Assembly: GCA_964510585.1 (NCBI GenBank)
Contig: CAZECW010000062.1
Coordinates: 30,001 to 62,000 of the forward strand
Length of the DNA: 32,000 nt
Source: an uncultured archaeon
GTDB lineage: Archaea > Asgardarchaeota > Jordiarchaeia > Jordiarchaeales > Jordiarchaeaceae
Direction of reading: 5' to 3'
The position numbers and the translations under genes were made by a program. The notes under the pieces were generated by a model. That model was not told the DNA's origin, ran no database searches, and saw only the letters and a list, made by a program, of their open reading frames with translations. Shown piece by piece: positions 1-10,247 of the stretch. Within the stretch, counting starts at the first letter, position 1. The number at the start of each line of letters is the position of its first letter.

Positions 1-1300
1 CTGTCTGCTCAAAAAGGGCTCCTTGCTCACCCACATATTTACTGAGTGTGGATGTGATATCTTGCATCCTCTGCCTTAATGTTTCAAATGATATGGCTAG
101 TGCGCTGAGGGATTCTGTGGTTTCATCCTTATATTTCTCAACTATGCGTAGGGCTCCTAGTTGGAAATTGTTTATGAATTCTTTTATCTTGGAGGTTACT
201 CTTTTTGATTCTCCAAGTATTAGCTCTTTGAGCTTTGTGGCTTGAACTTTGACCTTTTCCTCAGCCTCTCCCATGAAGCTGACTAATCTTTTCTGATTCA
301 AATCAAGGCTTTTTCCAATATACTCTAGAAGTGCCGAGTTAACGTCCCGTACCTTTGATAGTTGAGTTTCAGTTAGGGGCTTCAATTCCTCCACAAATTC
401 TGAAACTACAGATATGACGGCCTTAGCAATTTTTAGGGTGTTATCCTTTATGGTGTTTAGTGATTGAAGGTTAATCTCTCTAACTCCTTTTAGAGATTGG
501 TCTAGGGTGTAATCTACGTTTGAGAATAGGGATGTGAGTTCAGAGTTTGTTCTTGCGGATAAATCTACTATCCTCGTTTCTGTAGTTTTCAAAGTATCAT
601 TTACAGCGGTTTCCAGCTTTTCTTGGAACTCATTTAAGGAGATTCTTGTATGTTCTATGAAATCTTTCAATACGCTCTCAGAGGTATCCTTTAACCGATC
701 TATGTCGCTTCGAAACATGTCCACTGCTTCTTTAGCCCTATTGACGAGAGTCCTTATTATTTCTCGGGAGTCATTTTCGTGATGTTCAAGCATTTGTGTC
801 AGGAGTTCTCCAATGCTTTGTGATTGTTGATTGGCTTCGATTTGGAAATTGTCCAGAGAGCCTCTGGTTGAAGCCAGAAGCTGGCCTAGCAGTTGAGAGC
901 TGCTGTCTTTAACCTCCCTCAAATGACTGGATAAGCGCTCATCGAGCTGAGATTTGAGAGAAGACACGCTCCTATTAAGATGGTCGATGGCGCTTTTGGC
1001 ACGTTCCACCATGTTTTTTTTCAAGTTTTCCAGCTTTAACTGAAGTGTTTCGGCAACCATACCAGTAAGAGCTATGCGGGGTGTTAAAGCAATGTAGAAG
1101 TCGATTTTCCCCGGAATTTTTTTAACAACTCCCATAGACTCCAGTTTTTCAAGCTCCCGCGTAACTTCCGGAATAGTTAGATTCGTATAAACTGCCAATT
1201 CTGAGGCTGTTTTTGCACCCAACCCCACACACGTTGCGTAAACTTTTGCCTGTACGCCGGTTATTCCAACATCCTTCAGAGTGTCTTCCCAAACGGACAT
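1..1300 (-). CDS. TrmB-type winged-HTH protein with long hendecad coiled coil (3' end outside window)
   Basis: Translated by hand, not in ORF track. ATG at 1300 then 433 codons with no stop to the window edge. The N-terminus MSVWEDTLKDVGITGVQAKVYATCVGLGAKTASELAVYTNLTIPEVTRELEKLESMGVVKKIPGKIDFYIALTP fits the TrmB wHTH pattern; the rest is helical with 11-residue periodicity. Starts 1 nt after the upstream stop codon. Confidence 0.88.
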   Translation of the reverse strand, partial: MSVWEDTLKDVGITGVQAKVYATCVGLGAKTASELAVYTNLTIPEVTRELEKLESMGVVKKIPGKIDFYIALTPRIALTGMVAETLQLKLENLKKNMVERAKSAIDHLNRSVSSLKSQLDERLSSHLREVKDSSSQLLGQLLASTRGSLDNFQIEANQQSQSIGELLTQMLEHHENDSREIIRTLVNRAKEAVDMFRSDIDRLKDTSESVLKDFIEHTRISLNEFQEKLETAVNDTLKTTETRIVDLSARTNSELTSLFSNVDYTLDQSLKGVREINLQSLNTIKDNTLKIAKAVISVVSEFVEELKPLTETQLSKVRDVNSALLEYIGKSLDLNQKRLVSFMGEAEEKVKVQATKLKELILGESKRVTSKIKEFINNFQLGALRIVEKYKDETTESLSALAISFETLRQRMQDITSTLSKYVGEQGALFEQT

Positions 1301-1301
1301 T

Positions 1302-3623
1302 TTAAGCTCCCCCTACTTTTGAGATTTCTTTTTCGACGGCCTCTAATTGTTTTTGAGCATCGCTCACAGTCTTCAAAAAGTTTGCGAGGCCCTTTGATAT
1401 TGTCCCTCCACTCTTTTTTACTTCACCCTCAACAGAGGAGAGGCTGGTAATGAGCGTTTTAATGTTTTCCTGTATACTGCTCATCCCCTCCTTCAATTCT
1501 TTAAGCAACTGGTTTCCCTGCTCTGATAATTCACTGCTTGTTTTTTCACCCTGCTCCGAAAGTTTTTTAGAAATACTTGTGTAGGAACCTTCAAGGCTTT
1601 CCTTCACCTTTACCTTAACAGAAGTCAAGTTGGGTTCAGCGTCCTCAGCCACACTTTTTATATGTTCGCTCAGGGAAGATTTTTCCACCTCTGCTGTTTC
1701 CAAAATGCTCGACTTGCTCTCCTCCAGCTCCTTCTTGAGACTATTTATACTATTTGTGACAATGCTTTTTAGGGAGGACTCCAATTTTTCAACAGACTCT
1801 ATGGTTGTTGAGGAGCTCCCATTTATTCCCTCATCCATTTTTTGTTGGAATTCTTTTACCAGATTTTCAATACTTCTTCCCAGATTCTGGTCCAGTTCCT
1901 GTAATTTCTTTATAAAAGCTTCCTGTGCTTCTGCCGTTCTCGTCTTGGTTCCTTCAAGAATTTGGCCAAATTTCCCTTTTGATTCTCCAACGTCTCTAAC
2001 TACTCTTTCTATGGATTGCTCTATTTCCGTGGTTATGCTTGTTGATGCACTCTCCCCAATTTCACCCATCAATTCGCTGGTATTTTTAATAAGTTCTGAG
2101 GCCTTGCTTCTAAAATCAGTATTCTGAGATAGGACTAAGGCTTGGTTAGAGTCAATGGCGCTCCTGATATTGCTTGTGACACTGTCTTTAATGGACTTGT
2201 TCTTTTCGACATACCCCTCCAAAGACTCAGACAATTTTTCCAAGAATGTCTTCATAACCCCATCAAAATCCTGCTTTGTTCCTGCCAGTCCAGAATCGAA
2301 ATCAGACTTTATGAGTGAGGCGCTATCATAAAAGGATTTAACAGACACTGTTGCCATTTGTGCGAATTGCTCCTCATAATTTTGGAGAACCGACTGAATC
2401 TCCTTCAGCTGAGAAACAAGCATTTCATTAATATTAGTATTTATTGAGTCTACTAATTTGGATATTTGTTCCAACGCCTTTGAGAGATCCTCTTTTATTT
2501 GTTCCTGTAAAGTTTGCACACTTCCCTCTAGCCGTTCTAGTTGACTTACAAGTTGGGAGGAGAGACCGGAAAGCAAGTTCTCTACATTCTTAGAGAACTC
2601 TTCCTCCTTTGAACTGACTACTTCAGAAAGTTTGTCTCTCGCTCTGTTGCTTATTTCTTCGATTTCCTTGAATTTGGCTTCCGCAATGCCTTTTAGTTCG
2701 GCTTTTAACTCTTCCTTCACTTTCTCAAGAAGGGATGTGGCTTCTTCAAATTTTTCGTCCACATCGCTCTTAAGCCCCTCGTGAGACTCAGCCACCTTAC
2801 CTTTATACTCATCGCAAATCTTGTCTAGAGCGCGTATGGTTTCTGAATCCAGTGTTTCCAGTCTATTTTTCATCTGGAGGACTATGGATTCAGCTCTCTT
2901 TTTGGCGTCCGCAAATATGGATAAGAGATCATCTTGATGTTTGTCTAAAATTTCAGATGCCTGTGTTCCAAAATCCGTGATTTGATTCGTAAAGCTTGCA
3001 TAGTTTTCTTTTATTTCGTTGCCTTCTTCCTCTTCAAACTTTTGTATACTTGAAAGGAGTTGGCTGCTTAACTCTTTGGAGACCTTTGATAATAGTTCCT
3101 CCTGCTTCTTTCTATTTTCTTGGGTTCTGGAGCGAAATTCCGCCGCGGATTCACCAATCTGCGAAATCATGGAGCCTAGTTGAGTGTCTAGGTTTGATTC
3201 TGTGTTTGTGATGCTTTGATTGAAACTGCTCTTTGAAGCCTCGATTTTCTCCGTGATTCTGCTATCTATTTGTTTCAGGTTTGCAAGTAGCTCCTCAGTT
3301 ATGCGGTCAATTCCCTGGCTGAGAACGTCAACCTGTGTGTTAATTTCTTCCCTTAGGCTTGTTTCCATCTCCTGCATCCATTTGATGACATTGTTTTCCG
3401 CATCCTTGAGTGAAGCTAAAAACTTCTTCCTTAATGCATCCTCATTCGTCTGCAACTGTTTGGATGTGGTTTTCAATTTTTCAGATGAGGAACCAATTTG
3501 CTCGGTTAGGCTGGTAAATGTTTGATCCAGCCTTGTCTCCAAGTCCTTGACGCTATTTTTTGTCTCTTCTAAGGATTCCCTTCTGGCTGCAACCTTCTGC
3601 TGAATTTTTTCCATAGATTTCAT
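1302..3623 (-). CDS. 773-aa all-helical hendecad coiled-coil / apolipoprotein-like repeat protein
   Basis: Long ORF rich in S/E/K/L with a single Pro. Consecutive 11-mers have hydrophobic residues at positions 1/2, 5 and 8/9. No transmembrane segment or globular domain seen. Start overlaps the upstream stop by 4 nt. Confidence 0.88.
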   Translation of the reverse strand: MKSMEKIQQKVAARRESLEETKNSVKDLETRLDQTFTSLTEQIGSSSEKLKTTSKQLQTNEDALRKKFLASLKDAENNVIKWMQEMETSLREEINTQVDVLSQGIDRITEELLANLKQIDSRITEKIEASKSSFNQSITNTESNLDTQLGSMISQIGESAAEFRSRTQENRKKQEELLSKVSKELSSQLLSSIQKFEEEEGNEIKENYASFTNQITDFGTQASEILDKHQDDLLSIFADAKKRAESIVLQMKNRLETLDSETIRALDKICDEYKGKVAESHEGLKSDVDEKFEEATSLLEKVKEELKAELKGIAEAKFKEIEEISNRARDKLSEVVSSKEEEFSKNVENLLSGLSSQLVSQLERLEGSVQTLQEQIKEDLSKALEQISKLVDSINTNINEMLVSQLKEIQSVLQNYEEQFAQMATVSVKSFYDSASLIKSDFDSGLAGTKQDFDGVMKTFLEKLSESLEGYVEKNKSIKDSVTSNIRSAIDSNQALVLSQNTDFRSKASELIKNTSELMGEIGESASTSITTEIEQSIERVVRDVGESKGKFGQILEGTKTRTAEAQEAFIKKLQELDQNLGRSIENLVKEFQQKMDEGINGSSSTTIESVEKLESSLKSIVTNSINSLKKELEESKSSILETAEVEKSSLSEHIKSVAEDAEPNLTSVKVKVKESLEGSYTSISKKLSEQGEKTSSELSEQGNQLLKELKEGMSSIQENIKTLITSLSSVEGEVKKSGGTISKGLANFLKTVSDAQKQLEAVEKEISKVGGA

Positions 3624-5353
3624 TCCTCCTTAATCATGACTTTTTCATTTAAAGCCTCAAACTCTTTTAGAAAAATCGGCTGCTTGCTAAAGGCGTTTGT
3701 AGCCTTTTCATATAGCCTCTTAATTCTATCCTTGTCCCCAGCTCTCAGGAAGTGTTCAAAGGCCTTGTGGTAAAAAACGCGTGCCATCATTTTTAAGCCT
3801 TTAGCATCATAATCGTCTCCGATTTCTTCATAGATTAGAGCCACACTCCTAGCGGTGGAGCGGGCCTTCCACTCCACACCCGATGCTGCAAAGAGGTCTG
3901 AGGCGTGGGAAAGGAGGGATCGCGAATAGAAGTGTTTACCCCTATCCTCAAAAAGTTTGGCGGCCTTCTCCAGAATCATTCCCGCCCGTTCCATATCTCC
4001 CAACCTCTCATAAATACTTGCAGTTATCCGGAAGAGCTGAAACGATTCACTGTAAAGCTTCTTTTCTATGGCAGAGTGCGCATAAACCTCGGCGTTTGCA
4101 GCAACCTCTAAGGCAAGAGCCGGTTTATCCTGAGAAATCAACATGTTCGCTGAATCCCTCAACCATTCAAAATAAATGCGATCCAACCTTTCCCCAGTTT
4201 CTATTATCCTTCCAATAACCTTCAACACTGTTCTTGCTCGGCCATAAATCTGATCCACGTTTACAAGAAGCCTCAACATTTCATAGATGGCTTCGGACTT
4301 GAGCCACGCCGTGGACTCATCAACCTCTACTATACCCTCCTTAACAAGCAGGTTTAGCGCCTCCCTGCTAGTTTTCTTATCACCCTCCTGACCGATTTCC
4401 TCCAGAGGAAGCATGTTAAATTTTTGCGAAACAATTCTATCTATTACAGTCTCCTTTTCCACAGTAAGATCAGTTAAAGCATTGAGAGCGTTGTCTTGGA
4501 TCCTGCTATTTACCAGTCGAAAAATCTCCACGCTTGGCTGAGCCCCACTCTTACCTATTTCCCGCAGCAAGCCACACATATACAAAGCTAGCTTGAATGG
4601 GATACCTCCTGAAGCCTTGGTTAATTCCTCCTTAAGAGCATCATCAATCTTGATTCCGGTTGAAGCCTGATATTTCTGTATTAACAGTCGAATATCCTGT
4701 GTGGGGAAAACGTCCAACTCAACAATATGAAAGAGTTGTGGCTTATCACCCACCAAAACCTCCAGAAACCGCCTATCCACGCAGATCACAAAAAACAAGT
4801 TAAACTTCATTTCGACCAGTTTGGCTGCGACCTCTCTTAACAGGCGATAAGCCGTCTCGTAACCCAACCAAGCGAAACGCTCAAAATCGTCGCAGAAAAA
4901 CATTAAAATCTTGCGAAGCTTTTCCTGAACCTTATCCATATCCTCAAAAAACTGCTTCAAAAAATATTCCAGCTCAGCATCCCCAATCTCCTTAGACAAT
5001 GGAGGAGGCGCAACATACTTTTTTTCTCCCATAAACTTTTTCCTAGCCTCAGGAGCATAACCATCAACAGTCCTTTTGACATCATCGAAAAACACTCTCA
5101 CACCAGCCGCTGAGACCCTTCTTAATAATACTTCTATGCCTTCCTTCTCCGCTATCTGTGCAAACCTTTTAAGCAGGGAAGACTTTCCAATACCTGGAAT
5201 ACCAGTGATAACAAAAATCCTTCTATCTTCAGAACCAGTCTTGGCCCGAGAAATAAAGTCCTGAAACAATCCAATTTCTCTGGTTCTACCCGTAAAAAGC
5301 TCCCTATCAGCTGGTTCAACACAACTAATTTTCTTCTCCAAAACAACCACCAA
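3620..5353 (-). CDS. STAND-class (AAA_16-like) P-loop ATPase with wHTH and C-terminal TPR/SNAP-like helical repeats
   Basis: FTGRTREI lead-in, Walker A GIPGIGKS, Walker B MFFCDDFE, STAND GxP motif (SGGIPFKL), wHTH-like LNLLVKEGIVEV, and Ala/Tyr-patterned helical repeats at the C-terminus. TTG start. Confidence 0.82.
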   Translation of the reverse strand: MVVVLEKKISCVEPADRELFTGRTREIGLFQDFISRAKTGSEDRRIFVITGIPGIGKSSLLKRFAQIAEKEGIEVLLRRVSAAGVRVFFDDVKRTVDGYAPEARKKFMGEKKYVAPPPLSKEIGDAELEYFLKQFFEDMDKVQEKLRKILMFFCDDFERFAWLGYETAYRLLREVAAKLVEMKFNLFFVICVDRRFLEVLVGDKPQLFHIVELDVFPTQDIRLLIQKYQASTGIKIDDALKEELTKASGGIPFKLALYMCGLLREIGKSGAQPSVEIFRLVNSRIQDNALNALTDLTVEKETVIDRIVSQKFNMLPLEEIGQEGDKKTSREALNLLVKEGIVEVDESTAWLKSEAIYEMLRLLVNVDQIYGRARTVLKVIGRIIETGERLDRIYFEWLRDSANMLISQDKPALALEVAANAEVYAHSAIEKKLYSESFQLFRITASIYERLGDMERAGMILEKAAKLFEDRGKHFYSRSLLSHASDLFAASGVEWKARSTARSVALIYEEIGDDYDAKGLKMMARVFYHKAFEHFLRAGDKDRIKRLYEKATNAFSKQPIFLKEFEALNEKVMIKEE

Positions 5354-6543: not shown

Positions 6544-6996
6544 TTATTGGGAGGATTTGCTTAGTTCTCTTATTCTGGACTGTATGAACTCTAGAACCTT
6601 CGCTTCGCTGTATTTTTTCTCTTCTTGTTGTTTTTTCAAGAGTTCTTTGATTGATTTTATAAGTTCTTCCATATTTAGGGGTTTAAGGAGGTACCTATCG
6701 GCGTTCCTGTTTACGGCTTCTATGGCATTCTGCATAGATGGATAGCCAGTAATTATTATTTTAGCCATTTTCGGGATTGTTTCCTTCATCATGCTCAACA
6801 ATTTTGTTCCCTCCATGTCTGGAAGACGAATGTCCACCAGTGCGAGGTTGTAGAAATTGTTTTCAGTTTTTTCTATCGCCTCCTTTCCGCTCCTAGCGGT
6901 GTCAACAATGTAGCCTTCTTCCTGAAGTATGGCAGTCAGAACTTTTCTAATGCTTTCATCGTCGTCAACAATAAGAATCCTGGCGGATTCACTCAT
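6544..6996 (-). CDS. Stand-alone response regulator receiver (REC) protein
   Basis: ILIVDDD acidic pocket, LVDIRLPDMEG phospho-Asp, IITG, LLKP. Short C-terminal helix and no output domain. 4-nt overlap with the kinase. Confidence 0.96.
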   Translation of the reverse strand: MSESARILIVDDDESIRKVLTAILQEEGYIVDTARSGKEAIEKTENNFYNLALVDIRLPDMEGTKLLSMMKETIPKMAKIIITGYPSMQNAIEAVNRNADRYLLKPLNMEELIKSIKELLKKQQEEKKYSEAKVLEFIQSRIRELSKSSQ

Positions 6997-9992
6997 ACCT
7001 TTCCACCTTCCTTAAGTTTTTGTTTAACTGGAAGTGTTATCGTGATGGTTGTGCCTTTTCCAAACAAACTCTCCAAGAGAATAGAGCCTCCATGAGCTTC
7101 CACCAAGCGTTTACAGATTGGTAAGCCCATCCCAAGCCCCCTTGCCTTTGTAGTGAAGAGTGGACTCCAAATTTTGTCCAAAAGCTCAGGAGGCACTCCC
7201 CTACCGGTGTCCGCAAAAATTATTTTCAAGTTCTCACCCACCAGTCTAACCTCTATTTTGAGCACTCCACCCTCTGGCATAGCATCAACAGAGTTTTTAA
7301 TAAGGTTCACAAACACCCTCTCCATTTTCTCAACATCAACCATAACTAATGGATCATCAATAATCACTTTTAACACTTGAACATTAGGTGGTACATCGAC
7401 CAAACTTAAAGCCTCATCTACAACTTTTTCAATACTGGTCTCAGCGAGATTCAGTTGAACCTCTCTTGAGTACTCCAGAAGGTCCTCCACTATTTTATTA
7501 GAGTATTGTATGTCCTTCTCAATTAGCTTAAACATTTCAGCTGTTTTCTCATCCATAACTGACGCCAGCTTCTTTTTCAGGTAATAAACGGCGCCAGCAA
7601 TGCCCGTTAAAGGGTTGCGAAGGTCATGCCCCACCATCATTGCCACCTCACCTATAGTTGCCAGTCTCTCCGATTTAAGAAGAGCCTCCTCCATCAGTTT
7701 GCGTTCTGTTATATCTTTTATTACTGCCACAAAACCTATGGGGTTACCCAAAGCATCCCTCAAAACACTTGCAGACAATTCCGCCGGAAATTCGCGTCCA
7801 TCCCTAGTCAAAAGAGTATACTCAAGATTAACTACGGAACCTTGCTCCAAAGTTTTTACCATGTTAAGTTTGGCCCTATCCCTATCTTTTTCCGCAAAAT
7901 ACTTGAAGGCATTTTGACCAATAGCCTCCTCCTTAGATGAGAAACCATGAATTTTCAAGGCTGCCTGATTGCATTCAATCACATTTCCATTCAAGTCAGT
8001 AACAGCAATAGCATCCGGAGATGAGGCCAGAATGGCTCTAAGTTTCTCCTCGCTCTCCCTTAACTCCCTAGTTCTTTCTTCTACCATTTCCTCCAAGCGC
8101 TCCGCATATTCCCTCAACTTCTTCTCCAATCTTTTACGTTCAGCTATGTTTCTTATGAAGACTAAATCTGCAGGTCTCCCCTCAAAATTAATGCGCGCCG
8201 CATTTATCTCCACTGGTAGGCGTTTACCTTCTTTATTTAGGATTTCAAGCTCATATATTTGTGGTGCTTCTCTCCCCTCTAATCGATCATTGTATCTTTT
8301 GAGGACAAGTTCCCGGTAATCAGGAGCGATGAAATCTAAAAAATAAGCGCCTTTGATTTCCTCAGGTTTGTATCCCACAAGGTCTATGGAAGCAGTGTTG
8401 ATGAATTTTAGTACGCCATCCTGTATTATTATTATACCATCCTTTGAGTTCTCAACTAGAGCAGAATATTTAGCCTCCGATTCCCTCAGCGCCTCCTCCG
8501 CACGCTTACGTTCAGTAATGTCTCTTGACACTCCAATTATAGCTATAGGCTTCCCATGCGCATCGAAAATTAATGACATATTGGTTTCTGCTGGGAATAC
8601 AGTGCCATCCCTTTTAATTATTTTATACTCAATGTTGTGGGCACTACCCGTTTCAAGAAGTTGTTGCATAATCTCTGTTTCTGCGCGTCGTCGGTCTTCA
8701 GGAGCTATAAATTCAAAGCCACTTTTCCCAATAATTTCCTCCTCCGTTTCGTATCCCAGTGTCTTTAAACCCTGCCTGTTAACCATAAGTATTTTCCCAT
8801 CTAGATCGGTGAGCGTGATTGGATCGGGCGAGGTCTCAATCAAACTACGGTACTTTCCCTCGCTTTCCCGTAGAGCCTCCTCTGCACGCCTACGCTCGGT
8901 GATTTCCAATGTGATCTCAACAACACCTATGAGGTTTCCCTTTTCATCTTTAACCGGATAACCTCGTATAAACCACACCCTACCATCAGGAGTAGTCATT
9001 TCTCCCTCTTCTGGTTTGCCCGTTTCTAAGGCTTTTACCACTGGGCAGTCCACACAGGGTTCGCTGCGCTTCTGCCAAACCTCATAGCAAAAGTGTCCCA
9101 CAAGTTGGTCTGGTGTTAAAGAAACGGATTGGCCCGCGGCCCTGTTTGTCCATATAATCCTACAATCTTTATCTTGATAAACAACATGCTCAGATATGCT
9201 CTCCAAGATTAGTGCTTTTTCCCGCTCAGCCCTTTTTAAAGCCTCCTCTGCACGCCTACGCTCGGTGATTTCCAATGTGTTCTCAACAGCACCTATGAGG
9301 TTCCCCTTTTCGTCTTTAACAGGATAACCTCGAATGAGAAAAACTCTCCCATCTGGAGTAGTCTTTTCTCCCTCTTGTGGTTGACCCGTTTCTAAAGCTT
9401 TTTCCACTGGGCAGTCTACGCAGGGTTCGCTGCGCTGCTGCCAAACCTCATAGCAATGGCGTCCCACTAGTTGTTCTGCTGTCAAAGAAATAGATTTGCC
9501 TGCAGTTCTATTTGTCCAGATAATCCTATGATCTTTATCTTGATAAATAACATCTTCGGCTATACTATCTAAGATTAGTGCTTTTTCCCGCTCAGCCCTT
9601 TTTAAAGCCTCCTCCATTCGTTTACGCTCAGTTATGTCTATGATGATTCCCCTTAAGCCCACACGCTTATTTTCCCTAATTATGGGGTTGACGTGTATTA
9701 TGACTGGGAAGGTGCTCCCATCCTTTCTCCGAGCTGTATACTCAATACCTCCCAGATTTTCTCCCTCAAGTACCCTTTGGATATTTTTCGCAGCTCTGTC
9801 CAAATCTTCGGGAATTAACATTTGGAAAACATTTAAACCTCTATCAAAATCTTCCCGCGTGTAACCAAACGCTTCAAAGGCGTAGCGGTTAGCAAATGTA
9901 ATGTTGCCCTTATCGTCCGTTTCACAGACAATTTGAGGTAAAGAATCAACAAATTCACGGTATCTCTCCTCGCCCAAAAGAGAATTCTCCAT
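6993..9992 (-). CDS. Cytoplasmic multi-PAS (six PAS/PAC) sensor histidine kinase
   Basis: Six PAS modules, most ending in DITERK/EITERR linkers. H-box VGHDLRNPL, N-box NLIKNSVDAM, G1 DTGRGV, G2 GLGMGL. ATG 9992 follows GAGGGTGG; the ORF extends to 10058. Confidence 0.96.
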   Translation of the reverse strand: MENSLLGEERYREFVDSLPQIVCETDDKGNITFANRYAFEAFGYTREDFDRGLNVFQMLIPEDLDRAAKNIQRVLEGENLGGIEYTARRKDGSTFPVIIHVNPIIRENKRVGLRGIIIDITERKRMEEALKRAEREKALILDSIAEDVIYQDKDHRIIWTNRTAGKSISLTAEQLVGRHCYEVWQQRSEPCVDCPVEKALETGQPQEGEKTTPDGRVFLIRGYPVKDEKGNLIGAVENTLEITERRRAEEALKRAEREKALILESISEHVVYQDKDCRIIWTNRAAGQSVSLTPDQLVGHFCYEVWQKRSEPCVDCPVVKALETGKPEEGEMTTPDGRVWFIRGYPVKDEKGNLIGVVEITLEITERRRAEEALRESEGKYRSLIETSPDPITLTDLDGKILMVNRQGLKTLGYETEEEIIGKSGFEFIAPEDRRRAETEIMQQLLETGSAHNIEYKIIKRDGTVFPAETNMSLIFDAHGKPIAIIGVSRDITERKRAEEALRESEAKYSALVENSKDGIIIIQDGVLKFINTASIDLVGYKPEEIKGAYFLDFIAPDYRELVLKRYNDRLEGREAPQIYELEILNKEGKRLPVEINAARINFEGRPADLVFIRNIAERKRLEKKLREYAERLEEMVEERTRELRESEEKLRAILASSPDAIAVTDLNGNVIECNQAALKIHGFSSKEEAIGQNAFKYFAEKDRDRAKLNMVKTLEQGSVVNLEYTLLTRDGREFPAELSASVLRDALGNPIGFVAVIKDITERKLMEEALLKSERLATIGEVAMMVGHDLRNPLTGIAGAVYYLKKKLASVMDEKTAEMFKLIEKDIQYSNKIVEDLLEYSREVQLNLAETSIEKVVDEALSLVDVPPNVQVLKVIIDDPLVMVDVEKMERVFVNLIKNSVDAMPEGGVLKIEVRLVGENLKIIFADTGRGVPPELLDKIWSPLFTTKARGLGMGLPICKRLVEAHGGSILLESLFGKGTTITITLPVKQKLKEGGKV
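8875..9614. repeat. Intragenic tandem duplication of a 366-bp (122-codon) PAS module
   Basis: Identical blocks at 366-bp offset: 8874-8913 = 9240-9279 (40 bp) and 9205-9248 = 9571-9614 (44 bp). Confidence 0.92.
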
Positions 9993-10247
9993 TCTCCCAC
10001 CCTCAATTATTTCACGCTGTAGTTGCCCATTAGCGCATGATAGTTTGGCAGGATCCATGTCCCACTACTTCCTCCAACTTTCTTTTTACACTCCCTATAA
10101 CTCTTTTTTGATGCACTTAAAATGGGGAATTCTAAAGATTCTTTGCAACACCTTTTGCTCAGAACCATAATCAAACTAACACCCATTGGAACCTTTTTGA
10201 TGCATCCCTCATTATGAATAAACTCTTCTTCCACAACTACAAAGCCG

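Follow-up and report, generated by a model that had tools for sequence, protein, structure and literature searches.

The stretch of DNA considered here (the window; 32,000 nucleotides, G000:C62:30001-62000, G000 being the host genome) belongs to contig CAZECW010000062.1 of an uncultured archaeon of the Jordiarchaeales (Asgardarchaeota; GenBank assembly GCA_964510585.1). Its positions 1-5353 hold, on the minus strand, an operon of three head-to-tail open reading frames (ORFs): gene 1 (3620-5353, 577 aa), gene 2 (1302-3623, 773 aa) and gene 3 (2-1300, 433 aa, running off the window edge). Gene 1 encodes a STAND-type ATPase, and genes 2 and 3 encode very long helical proteins built on an 11-residue (hendecad) repeat. 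The gene 3 product was found to be no plain rod: the length changes between its orthologues occur as length-matched, mirror-symmetric pairs, and the three genes form a conserved, vertically inherited, housekeeping-like unit of Asgard archaea.

The junctions are as an earlier model-made annotation of the same letters (the sequence-only reading) had given them, with a 4-nt ATGA overlap between genes 1 and 2 and a 1-nt gap between genes 2 and 3. Since the orthologues of gene 2 start with MEKIQQ, and a GGAGG (3625-3629) lies 10 nt ahead of the second ATG (3614), the true gene 1/gene 2 junction is probably a 5-nt gap and gene 2 probably 770 aa long, the coupling still being tight. The start of the ATPase is ambiguous (TTG 5353 or TTG 5341), and the database copy has 573 aa. 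A candidate TATA-like box is located about 50-60 nt before the candidate ATPase starts. The features of the operon are collected in the table.

Table. Features of the three-gene operon, in window coordinates
Feature	Position	Strand	Basis or remark
Candidate TATA-like box TATATAAAAAA	5403..5413	(-)	Read from sequence; AT-rich divergent intergenic region upstream of the ATPase gene
Gene 1, effector-less STAND ATPase, 573-577 aa	3620..5353	(-)	Pfam, alignment, AF2, Foldseek
NOD (nucleotide-binding domain, helical domain and winged helix), residues ~17-365	4259..5305	(-)	AF2 secondary structure, structural matches
Walker A, GIPGIGKS, residues 51-58	5180..5203	(-)	Conservation among orthologues
Walker B, LMFFCDD, residues 149-156	4886..4909	(-)	Invariant D155
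TPR-like helical repeat domain, residues ~366-577	3623..4258	(-)	AF2, weak Pfam matches, alignment to the TPR arm of 6mfv
Gene 2, continuous hendecad helix, 770 aa (773 aa if ATG 3623)	1302..3614	(-)	Periodicity analysis
Gene 2 central segment, residues ~340-420, best-conserved part	2364..2606	(-)	Jord vs Borr sequence identity
Gene 3, first 433 of 1812 codons	1..1300	(-)	Runs past the window start to G000:C62:25862
Gene 3 TrmB-type winged helix-turn-helix, residues 8-74	1079..1279	(-)	Pfam TrmB 1.7e-9

With the contig sequence beyond the window start, gene 3 encodes 1812 aa (L002:11862-17300). The winged helix-turn-helix (wHTH) of TrmB type that the sequence-only reading had placed at its N-terminus is borne out by a Pfam match above the cut-off (PF01978, 1.7e-9) and by a profile of the heads of its orthologues, which matched TrmB (3qph, 2.6e-11) best and TrmBL2 (5bpd) at 2.6e-7. 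This wHTH contains residues invariant across the orthologues, and the head is predicted to bind DNA. The last ~130 residues, for whose identity that reading had called, gave no Pfam match, the TrmB C-domain models included, and they keep K, RD and EE residues invariant among orthologues (K, RD.EE). The globular part of their AlphaFold2 (AF2) model reached a pLDDT of 80-90, and Foldseek matched it to TrmBL2 (5bpd, E 2.4e-8), to TrmB (3qph and 2f5t) and then to PLD nucleases; by fold only, the C-terminal 130 aa are thus modelled as a PLD-like domain of TrmB/TrmBL2 type. Nuclease activity is unlikely, because the PLD fold here lacks a conserved HKD histidine. Both TrmB domains are present in all orthologues, and here they are spaced by ~1600 residues (74-1684) of hendecad helix (spectral peak at 3.66 residues, power 5.8 vs 2.7 in shuffled sequences).

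Gene 3 is therefore a TrmB-family protein whose linker helix became a hendecad helix of ~1600 residues. Like TrmBL2 and TrmB of the Thermococcales (5bpd, 5bqt, 3qph, 2f5t), it combines an N-terminal TrmB wHTH with a C-terminal PLD-like domain preceded by a helix, but the short amphipathic dimerisation helix of that family (about 30 residues) is replaced by the long hendecad helix with a break at its midpoint. It also differs in the sequence of the C-domain, which matches none of the Pfam models for the TrmB C-domain, and in being always linked to a STAND ATPase.

Paired insertions and deletions (indels) were compared between orthologues of gene 3 in four independent lineages. In Ca. Borrarchaeum, exactly four indels separate two orthologues of 1532 and 1393 aa that are 66% identical; the indels measure 33, 40, 33 and 33 residues, lie at positions 310, 536, 910 and 1123, and form two nested pairs (33/33 and 40/33) centred on 733 and 741, the midpoint of the rod being at 734; in simulations, 0.5% of random placements equalled this symmetry (P ~0.005). 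When the protein from the window is aligned with its 1339-aa counterpart in Ca. Jordarchaeum madagascariense, two gaps appear, one of 231 and one of 241 residues; their mean centre lies 2.5 residues off the midpoint derived from periodicity (rod 75-1640, P ~0.006) and about 24 residues off the motif-based midpoint, 879. Between Ca. J. madagascariense and a further genome (G005), 84 residues lost in the N half are accompanied by 74 lost opposite to them in the C half. In one genus of Heimdallarchaeaceae, orthologues of 1474 and 1260 aa differ by 106 residues (444-550) and by 104-109 residues (825-943), a pair mirrored about 692, with the rod midpoint at 706. The indel pattern between G000 and G006 was not used, as it was too noisy at 28% identity.

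A second line of evidence comes from the hendecad periodicity itself. With rod ends set by conserved motifs, 13 of the 20 gene 3 orthologues have one of their three deepest minima of hendecad power no further than 1% of rod length from the arithmetic midpoint; these 13 represent at least seven lineages, and the rods measure 907-1610 residues. The midpoint carries a basic, Gly-containing motif, EDKSGDKKKFSLDK in the protein studied here (residues 872-885, outside the window) and LFGLRK, MFGKKDF or KLFGKGEG elsewhere, in which basic residues are combined with hydrophobic ones. Together, the paired mirror-symmetric indels and the midpoint break indicate, by comparison of orthologues, that the N and C halves of the rod pair in antiparallel fashion. 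Most likely the chain folds back on itself at the basic, Gly-containing apex, giving an arm of ~800 residues, about 115-120 nm in length, with both globular domains at one end. The sequence-only reading, which had described gene 3 as a wHTH fused to the same kind of helix as gene 2, was right as to the wHTH and the hendecads; the simple rod that it assumed is at odds with the paired indels and the break.

Further breaks were also observed away from the midpoint. In several gene 3 orthologues (L002, L017, L021, L024, L025, L037, L042 and others), hendecad power drops about +0.10-0.15 and +0.30 rod lengths from the midpoint, and the N half shows mirrored shifts. In the protein from the window such breaks bound the segments 396-627 and 1078-1319, whose paired deletion is seen in Ca. 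J. madagascariense; the arm may have joints ('elbows') at these breaks.

Such an arm invites comparison with those of SMC, Rad50 and MukB, which are likewise long antiparallel coiled coils, with both chain ends at one DNA-binding head, as predicted for gene 3, and which share with it conserved discontinuities and length changes that come as compensating pairs in both strands. The differences are equally clear: the termini of gene 3 are a wHTH and a PLD-like domain rather than an ABC ATPase head (the match to SMC_prok_A, at 0.028, is at coiled-coil level), there is no hinge domain, the apex being a basic loop of about 14 residues, the arm is built of hendecads rather than the heptads of SMC, and the ATPase is a separate STAND protein. 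Gene 3 thus shares the principle of the SMC arm but is no member of the SMC superfamily.

Gene 2 is one unbroken hendecad helix of 70 repeats, in keeping with its earlier description as a pure 11-residue-repeat helix. The spectrum of its hydrophobic residues has a single Fourier peak at 3.67 residues (11/3), with a power of 16.6 vs a maximum of 2.2 in 100 shuffles, and between residues 20 and 770 its phase keeps to 250 +/- 20 degrees, so that all 70 hendecads are in one register. The core positions a, d, e and h are hydrophobic in 75%, 37%, 66% and 44% of repeats, respectively, and there is one Pro in 773 residues. As a continuous helix, the protein would measure ~114 nm and, judging by this pattern, must oligomerise as a near-straight coiled coil. 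Pfam matched both rods to Apolipoprotein (8e-30 for gene 2, 2.4e-37 for gene 3), with weak matches to ApoLp-III and phasin. The Apolipoprotein match of gene 2 reflects the repeat type only, because its hydrophobic stripe is that of a coiled coil, unlike the broad face of the Pro-punctuated apolipoprotein helices.

The length of gene 2 is 767-772 aa in Jordarchaeia and Borrarchaeia and 482-485 aa in Heimdallarchaeaceae. It was observed to be exactly 770 aa (70 hendecads) in three orthologues from two Asgard classes (the window, G005 and G028), and the ATPases of the Jord and Borr classes are merely 27-29% identical despite the matching lengths of gene 2. The length looks selected, in the manner of a ruler. 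Between these two classes, the identity of gene 2 rises to 0.30-0.35 at residues ~340-420, compared with 0.16 overall; hendecad power peaks in the same central segment and no break occurs there. A hairpin was considered for gene 2 as well and rejected, power and phase being undiminished at the centre, which is its most regular and most conserved part.

Hendecad coiled coils are known from the peripheral stalk of A/V-type ATPases (PMC3293630). With that stalk and the ZorA tail the two rods share the 11-residue periodicity, the a/d/e/h core and a straight or right-handed coiled coil, but they are far longer (770 and about 2 x 800 residues), and gene 2 has neither a globular nor a membrane domain. 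Scy and FilP, bacterial proteins rich in coiled coil, offer another comparison of the hendecad type. Paralogy of the two rods was tested by BLASTP and discarded; the 21% identity over 800 residues (E 7e-4) is at the level of composition and proves nothing.

Gene 1 encodes a STAND-type NOD-TPR ATPase without an effector domain (NOD, nucleotide-binding oligomerisation domain). Pfam placed AAA_16 above the cut-off (1e-9), and ATPase_2 and nSTAND1 below it (nSTAND1 8.7e-5, 22.7 vs the 27.1-bit cut-off); the precomputed Pfam annotation lists nSTAND1 for many of the orthologues. The hallmarks noticed in the sequence-only reading (Walker A and B, GxP, winged helix and TPR-like repeats) are upheld by alignment and model alike. 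Walker A (GIPGIGKS) conforms to GxxGxGK[ST] in the orthologues, with G54 and G56 invariant and K57 nearly so (12-39 orthologues aligned), Walker B reads FFCDD with D155 invariant, and GxP occurs as GGIPF at residues 249-253. The residue following the Walker B aspartate is variable (D/N/S/C), which suggests a slow switch rather than a motor. An AF2 model built on 39 sequences (pLDDT 89.7, pTM 0.76) contains the nucleotide-binding domain, a helical domain, a winged helix and a TPR-like solenoid of ten helices at residues 368-576. Its top match by Foldseek in the PDB is 6mfv, a STAND protein of NOD-TPR type that aligns from end to end (E 2e-11), followed by Avs3/4, Orc1/Cdc6, Apaf-1, MalT and NLRs (NRC1). 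In the repeat region, weak Pfam matches were obtained to SNAP (6.9e-4) and TPR_12 (0.006) at residues 417-515.

As had been proposed, no effector or output domain is fused to this ATPase: in the AF2 model and the Foldseek alignments, the NOD begins at about residue 17. Its relatives in the AlphaFold database (AFDB) are AAA_16-TPR modules placed behind cyclase, kinase, HTH, Mrr or protease effectors, and they align to gene 1 from their residue 100-550 onward, past the effectors. The protein of 6mfv, PH0952 of Pyrococcus horikoshii, resembles gene 1, as do AAA_16/MalT-type STANDs, in its NOD and TPR sensor arm, but the two are only 13% identical in sequence, and the gene 1 family is restricted to Asgard archaea and encoded with rod proteins. 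PH0952 reportedly also lacks an effector domain, and a fused effector is thus not obligatory for the STAND family. In Heimdallarchaeaceae, the ATPases (L021:2717-4471, L024:14749-16509, L056-L059) were seen to carry an extra acidic C-terminal tail with the conserved ending (L/I)E(N/D)IEKEL(E/D)F, which is absent from the Jord and Borr proteins and could be a short docking motif.

The closest loci are found in metagenome-assembled genomes of Ca. Jordarchaeia/Freyarchaeota (72-90% identity), and full-length relatives with 28-30% identity occur in Ca. Borrarchaeum. Further members were identified by exact-sequence matches in Heimdallarchaeaceae (Ca. Heimdallarchaeum aukensis and endolithica), other 'Heimdallarchaeota', Helarchaeota and Wukongarchaeota; two relatives, one with the NCBI label 'Methanobacteriota/Euryarchaeota archaeon' and one labelled 'Thermoproteota archaeon', come from genomes that lie inside the Asgard set. 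DNA of the window occurs only in hot-spring metagenome runs, with no RNA data set among those listed. An exhaustive profile search with the ATPase against 1.84 billion representatives returned only ~30 full-length clusters (50% identity), and beyond these generic AAA_16/nSTAND1 ATPases of ~380 aa; another homologue search, with a profile of 39 sequences, recovered just the close Jord/Frey set. The family is confined to Asgard archaea. There it is single-copy and present in 76 of 301 genomes, all or none by family: it was detected in 29/29 genomes of Heimdallarchaeaceae (f5), in 11/11 of f14 and in 5/5 of another family, and in 0/76 of f7, 0/68 of f9 and 0/19 of another.

Wherever a locus has enough flank, at least one of the two rod genes adjoins the ATPase gene. 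Among the 22 loci read by ORF, 18 show the coupled arrangement ATPase, rod, TrmB-rod, across at least eight Asgard families. The full trio is present in Jord/Frey, Borr, Heimdallarchaeaceae, f14, f18, f24 and f25, as well as in Wukong, where the end of the contig truncates gene 3. In f21, the ATPase and gene 2 are adjacent, with gene 3 5-18 kb off, and Helarchaeota and f30 have a two-gene form of ATPase and gene 3 without gene 2. In at least 28 further genomes, judged by coordinates, the ATPase and gene 3 lie on one contig and strand, 5.3-7.2 kb apart, and 61 of the 63 genomes with a top-scoring gene 3 orthologue (E <= 4e-33) carry the ATPase. The neighbours of the operon are metabolic or informational and differ between lineages. 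The trio, whose failure to co-occur elsewhere would have spoken against a functional unit, therefore does recur with conserved synteny. No description of the operon was found in the literature searched on Asgard TrmB/coiled-coil proteins, apolipoproteins, giant filaments and STAND NTPases or on archaeal hendecads, in agreement with the earlier remark that no named system has this composition.

The distribution of related rods is broader. With a profile of the arm end and C-domain of gene 3, hendecad rods with a TrmB-like C-domain of this type were observed in 254 of the 301 Asgard genomes, with 2-6 paralogues in each and ORFs of 500-2092 aa. Members in f12 have ~1794-1811 aa, though no ATPase of the gene 1 family was found in f12. 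The host genome has two smaller C-domain paralogues (G000:C20:100784-101290, L046; G000:C173:62874-63263, L047), in ORFs of at least 636 and 668 aa with a period of 3.67. In the Jordarchaeales genome G006, gene 3 is directly followed by a convergent SMC/Rad50-like ORF of 1117 aa (L016:3113-6466, +) with two small downstream genes, an arrangement not seen in the other lineages.

The sequence-only reading had further suggested that the two rods form a heteromeric filament and act on behalf of the ATPase in trans. A lengthwise filament of this kind is disfavoured, because the length of gene 2 stays constant and does not track that of gene 3, whose arms differ by 100-470 aa between members of one genus, and because some lineages do without gene 2, which is missing in Helarchaeota. 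We also rejected, as a rule, the alignment of gene 2 alongside the gene 3 arm one to one: the lengths agree here (770 vs about 800 residues) but not in Ca. J. madagascariense (772 vs ~570), G005 (770 vs ~490), Ca. Borrarchaeum (770 vs ~660) or Heimdallarchaeaceae (485 vs ~520 or ~630). That the rods serve as an in-trans effector of the STAND ATPase is suggested by their synteny.

Several functions may be considered for such a module. One is that of a split signal-responsive regulator, in which the TPR domain of the STAND protein senses a ligand, as in MalT and AfsR, and controls a TrmB-type regulator in trans, the rods being spacers or oligomerisation devices. TrmB-family proteins are mostly regulators, the wHTH profile of gene 3 has TrmB as its best match, and many AAA_16-TPR STANDs have HTH or cyclase outputs (LuxR-HTH and guanylate cyclase are among the AFDB matches). 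Yet a regulator would need neither a 115-nm arm length-matched in four lineages nor a separate 114-nm helix; the closest structural match of the gene 3 C-domain is the chromatin protein TrmBL2, and no conserved target gene adjoins the operon, its flanks differing between lineages. We consider this explanation improbable. Unlikely as well is a cytoskeletal or scaffold filament independent of DNA and comparable to FilP, Scy or crescentin, with the wHTH used for protein contacts and the ATPase as an assembly factor. More than 80% of the coding mass does go to the rods, gene 2 is devoid of any globular domain and its conserved length (70 repeats in two classes) is suggestive of a structural ruler; this explanation is, however, difficult to reconcile with the retention of both TrmB domains in all gene 3 orthologues, with the invariant residues of the wHTH and the K, RD and EE of the C-domain, and with the fact that the closest solved relatives of these end domains bind DNA.

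NLR-like defence was one of the roles raised in the sequence-only reading. In an antiviral system of the NLR/Avs or Zorya-tail type, a viral protein would be detected by the STAND protein, and the rods would serve as the effector or pass on the signal. Avs3 and Avs4 are indeed among the Foldseek matches of the ATPase, and the rods match ZorA-tail models in PADLOC (1e-17 to 2.5e-27), but these matches cover the repeat-type tail only, without the MotA channel. No MotA/ExbB family was among the Pfam matches of the rods, no ZorB-like gene was present among the neighbours scanned, and the best PADLOC match of the ATPase (4.4e-5) falls in its TPR region. The module contains no nuclease, protease, TIR or pore domain, and the HKD histidine, as mentioned, is not conserved. 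Being single-copy, inherited by family, surrounded by housekeeping genes and lacking an effector, it is unlike the patchy defence islands, and for these reasons an NLR-like role is very unlikely. Hardly any credence can be given to a coat of amphipathic helices on lipid or another surface, of the apolipoprotein, perilipin or phasin type, with gene 3 tethering the body to DNA like PhaF: the Pfam matches to Apolipoprotein, ApoLp-III and phasin and the basic and hydrophobic apex of gene 3 could be cited for it, but the hydrophobic a/d/e/h stripe is narrow, as in coiled coils, there is no punctuation by Pro, and the mirror-symmetric paired indels mean pairing of helix with helix, not binding to a surface.

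We infer that the module is neither a defence system nor a simple regulator, and the reading that we prefer, a nucleotide-switched, DNA-anchored structural scaffold for nucleoid organisation, bridging or tethering, stands in our judgement an even chance of being correct. TrmBL2 is a filament-forming nucleoid protein that coats DNA in stiff filaments and stalls Smc-ScpAB (PMC11840125). By homology, the gene 3 head would bind DNA in the manner of TrmBL2, and the arm would project ~115 nm from the nucleoid DNA. The ATPase, which has no output domain of its own, would bind ATP and oligomerise through its NOD, and its TPR domain would gather or release the rods.

A number of points weigh against this scaffold and its parts. 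An antiparallel intermolecular dimer of gene 3 would produce the same indel symmetry as a hairpin, and the midpoint break, on account of which the hairpin is favoured, is the sole evidence separating them; nor is a fold-back implied by homology, because the linker helix of TrmB is not a hairpin. ATP hydrolysis by the gene 1 family may be weak, since the residue after the Walker B aspartate varies and one orthologue has R in place of the Walker A lysine. Two large Asgard families yielded no ATPase of this kind (0/76 and 0/68), and the module is thus not essential to Asgard biology. Finally, the host genome keeps a canonical SMC (906 bits) and consequently has no gap in chromosome organisation to be filled; replacement of SMC by the module was rejected on the same ground.

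More broadly, Asgard archaea may hold an unrecognised class of DNA-anchored long-arm machines, in which a TrmBL2-like chromatin protein without an ABC ATPase carries a fold-back arm of ~115-120 nm and, together with a 70-hendecad 'ruler', is assembled or switched by a dedicated STAND ATPase so as to organise or tether the nucleoid over ~100 nm. This proposal is tentative, and the balance of our judgement leans against it. If true, the closest relatives of eukaryotes would have found their own, lineage-specific way of organising the cell interior, and the module would belong to a radiation of TrmB-derived rods that spans the phylum (254/301 genomes). Interest in Asgard archaea stems from what they may reveal about the origins of eukaryotic cell organisation, and nearly all of it has so far been directed at homologues of eukaryotic proteins (actin, ESCRT, small GTPases, histones); the operon is a conserved, single-copy and lineage-specific system on the scale of ~100 nm in Heimdallarchaeaceae, Jord/Freyarchaeia, Borrarchaeia, Wukongarchaeia and Helarchaeia. 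It points to a new route to an arm of SMC type, in which a chromatin protein has had its linker lengthened and the resulting arm is paired with an output-less STAND switch, and, if the module organises DNA, to an unexpected extra layer of Asgard chromatin biology beside histones and SMC. An in-phase helix of 770 residues, and arms whose two strands change length together, are also material for engineering and biophysics.

The genes around the operon in the host genome are unrelated to it: the upstream neighbour is a divergently transcribed alpha/beta hydrolase gene, and the downstream side has genes for an MFS transporter, a flavodoxin and oxidoreductases. Further along the same strand downstream (L002:3191-9731, corresponding to G000:C62:17191-23731), we observed a form-III-like RuBisCO large subunit, a ferredoxin-NADP-reductase-like protein with a 2Fe-2S domain and two tandem flavoproteins resembling amine oxidases/phytoene desaturases. 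Within the window, positions 6544-10058 on the minus strand encode a 1021-aa histidine kinase that contains five or six PAS domains; the next gene, which overlaps it by 4 nt, specifies a stand-alone receiver protein of 150 aa.

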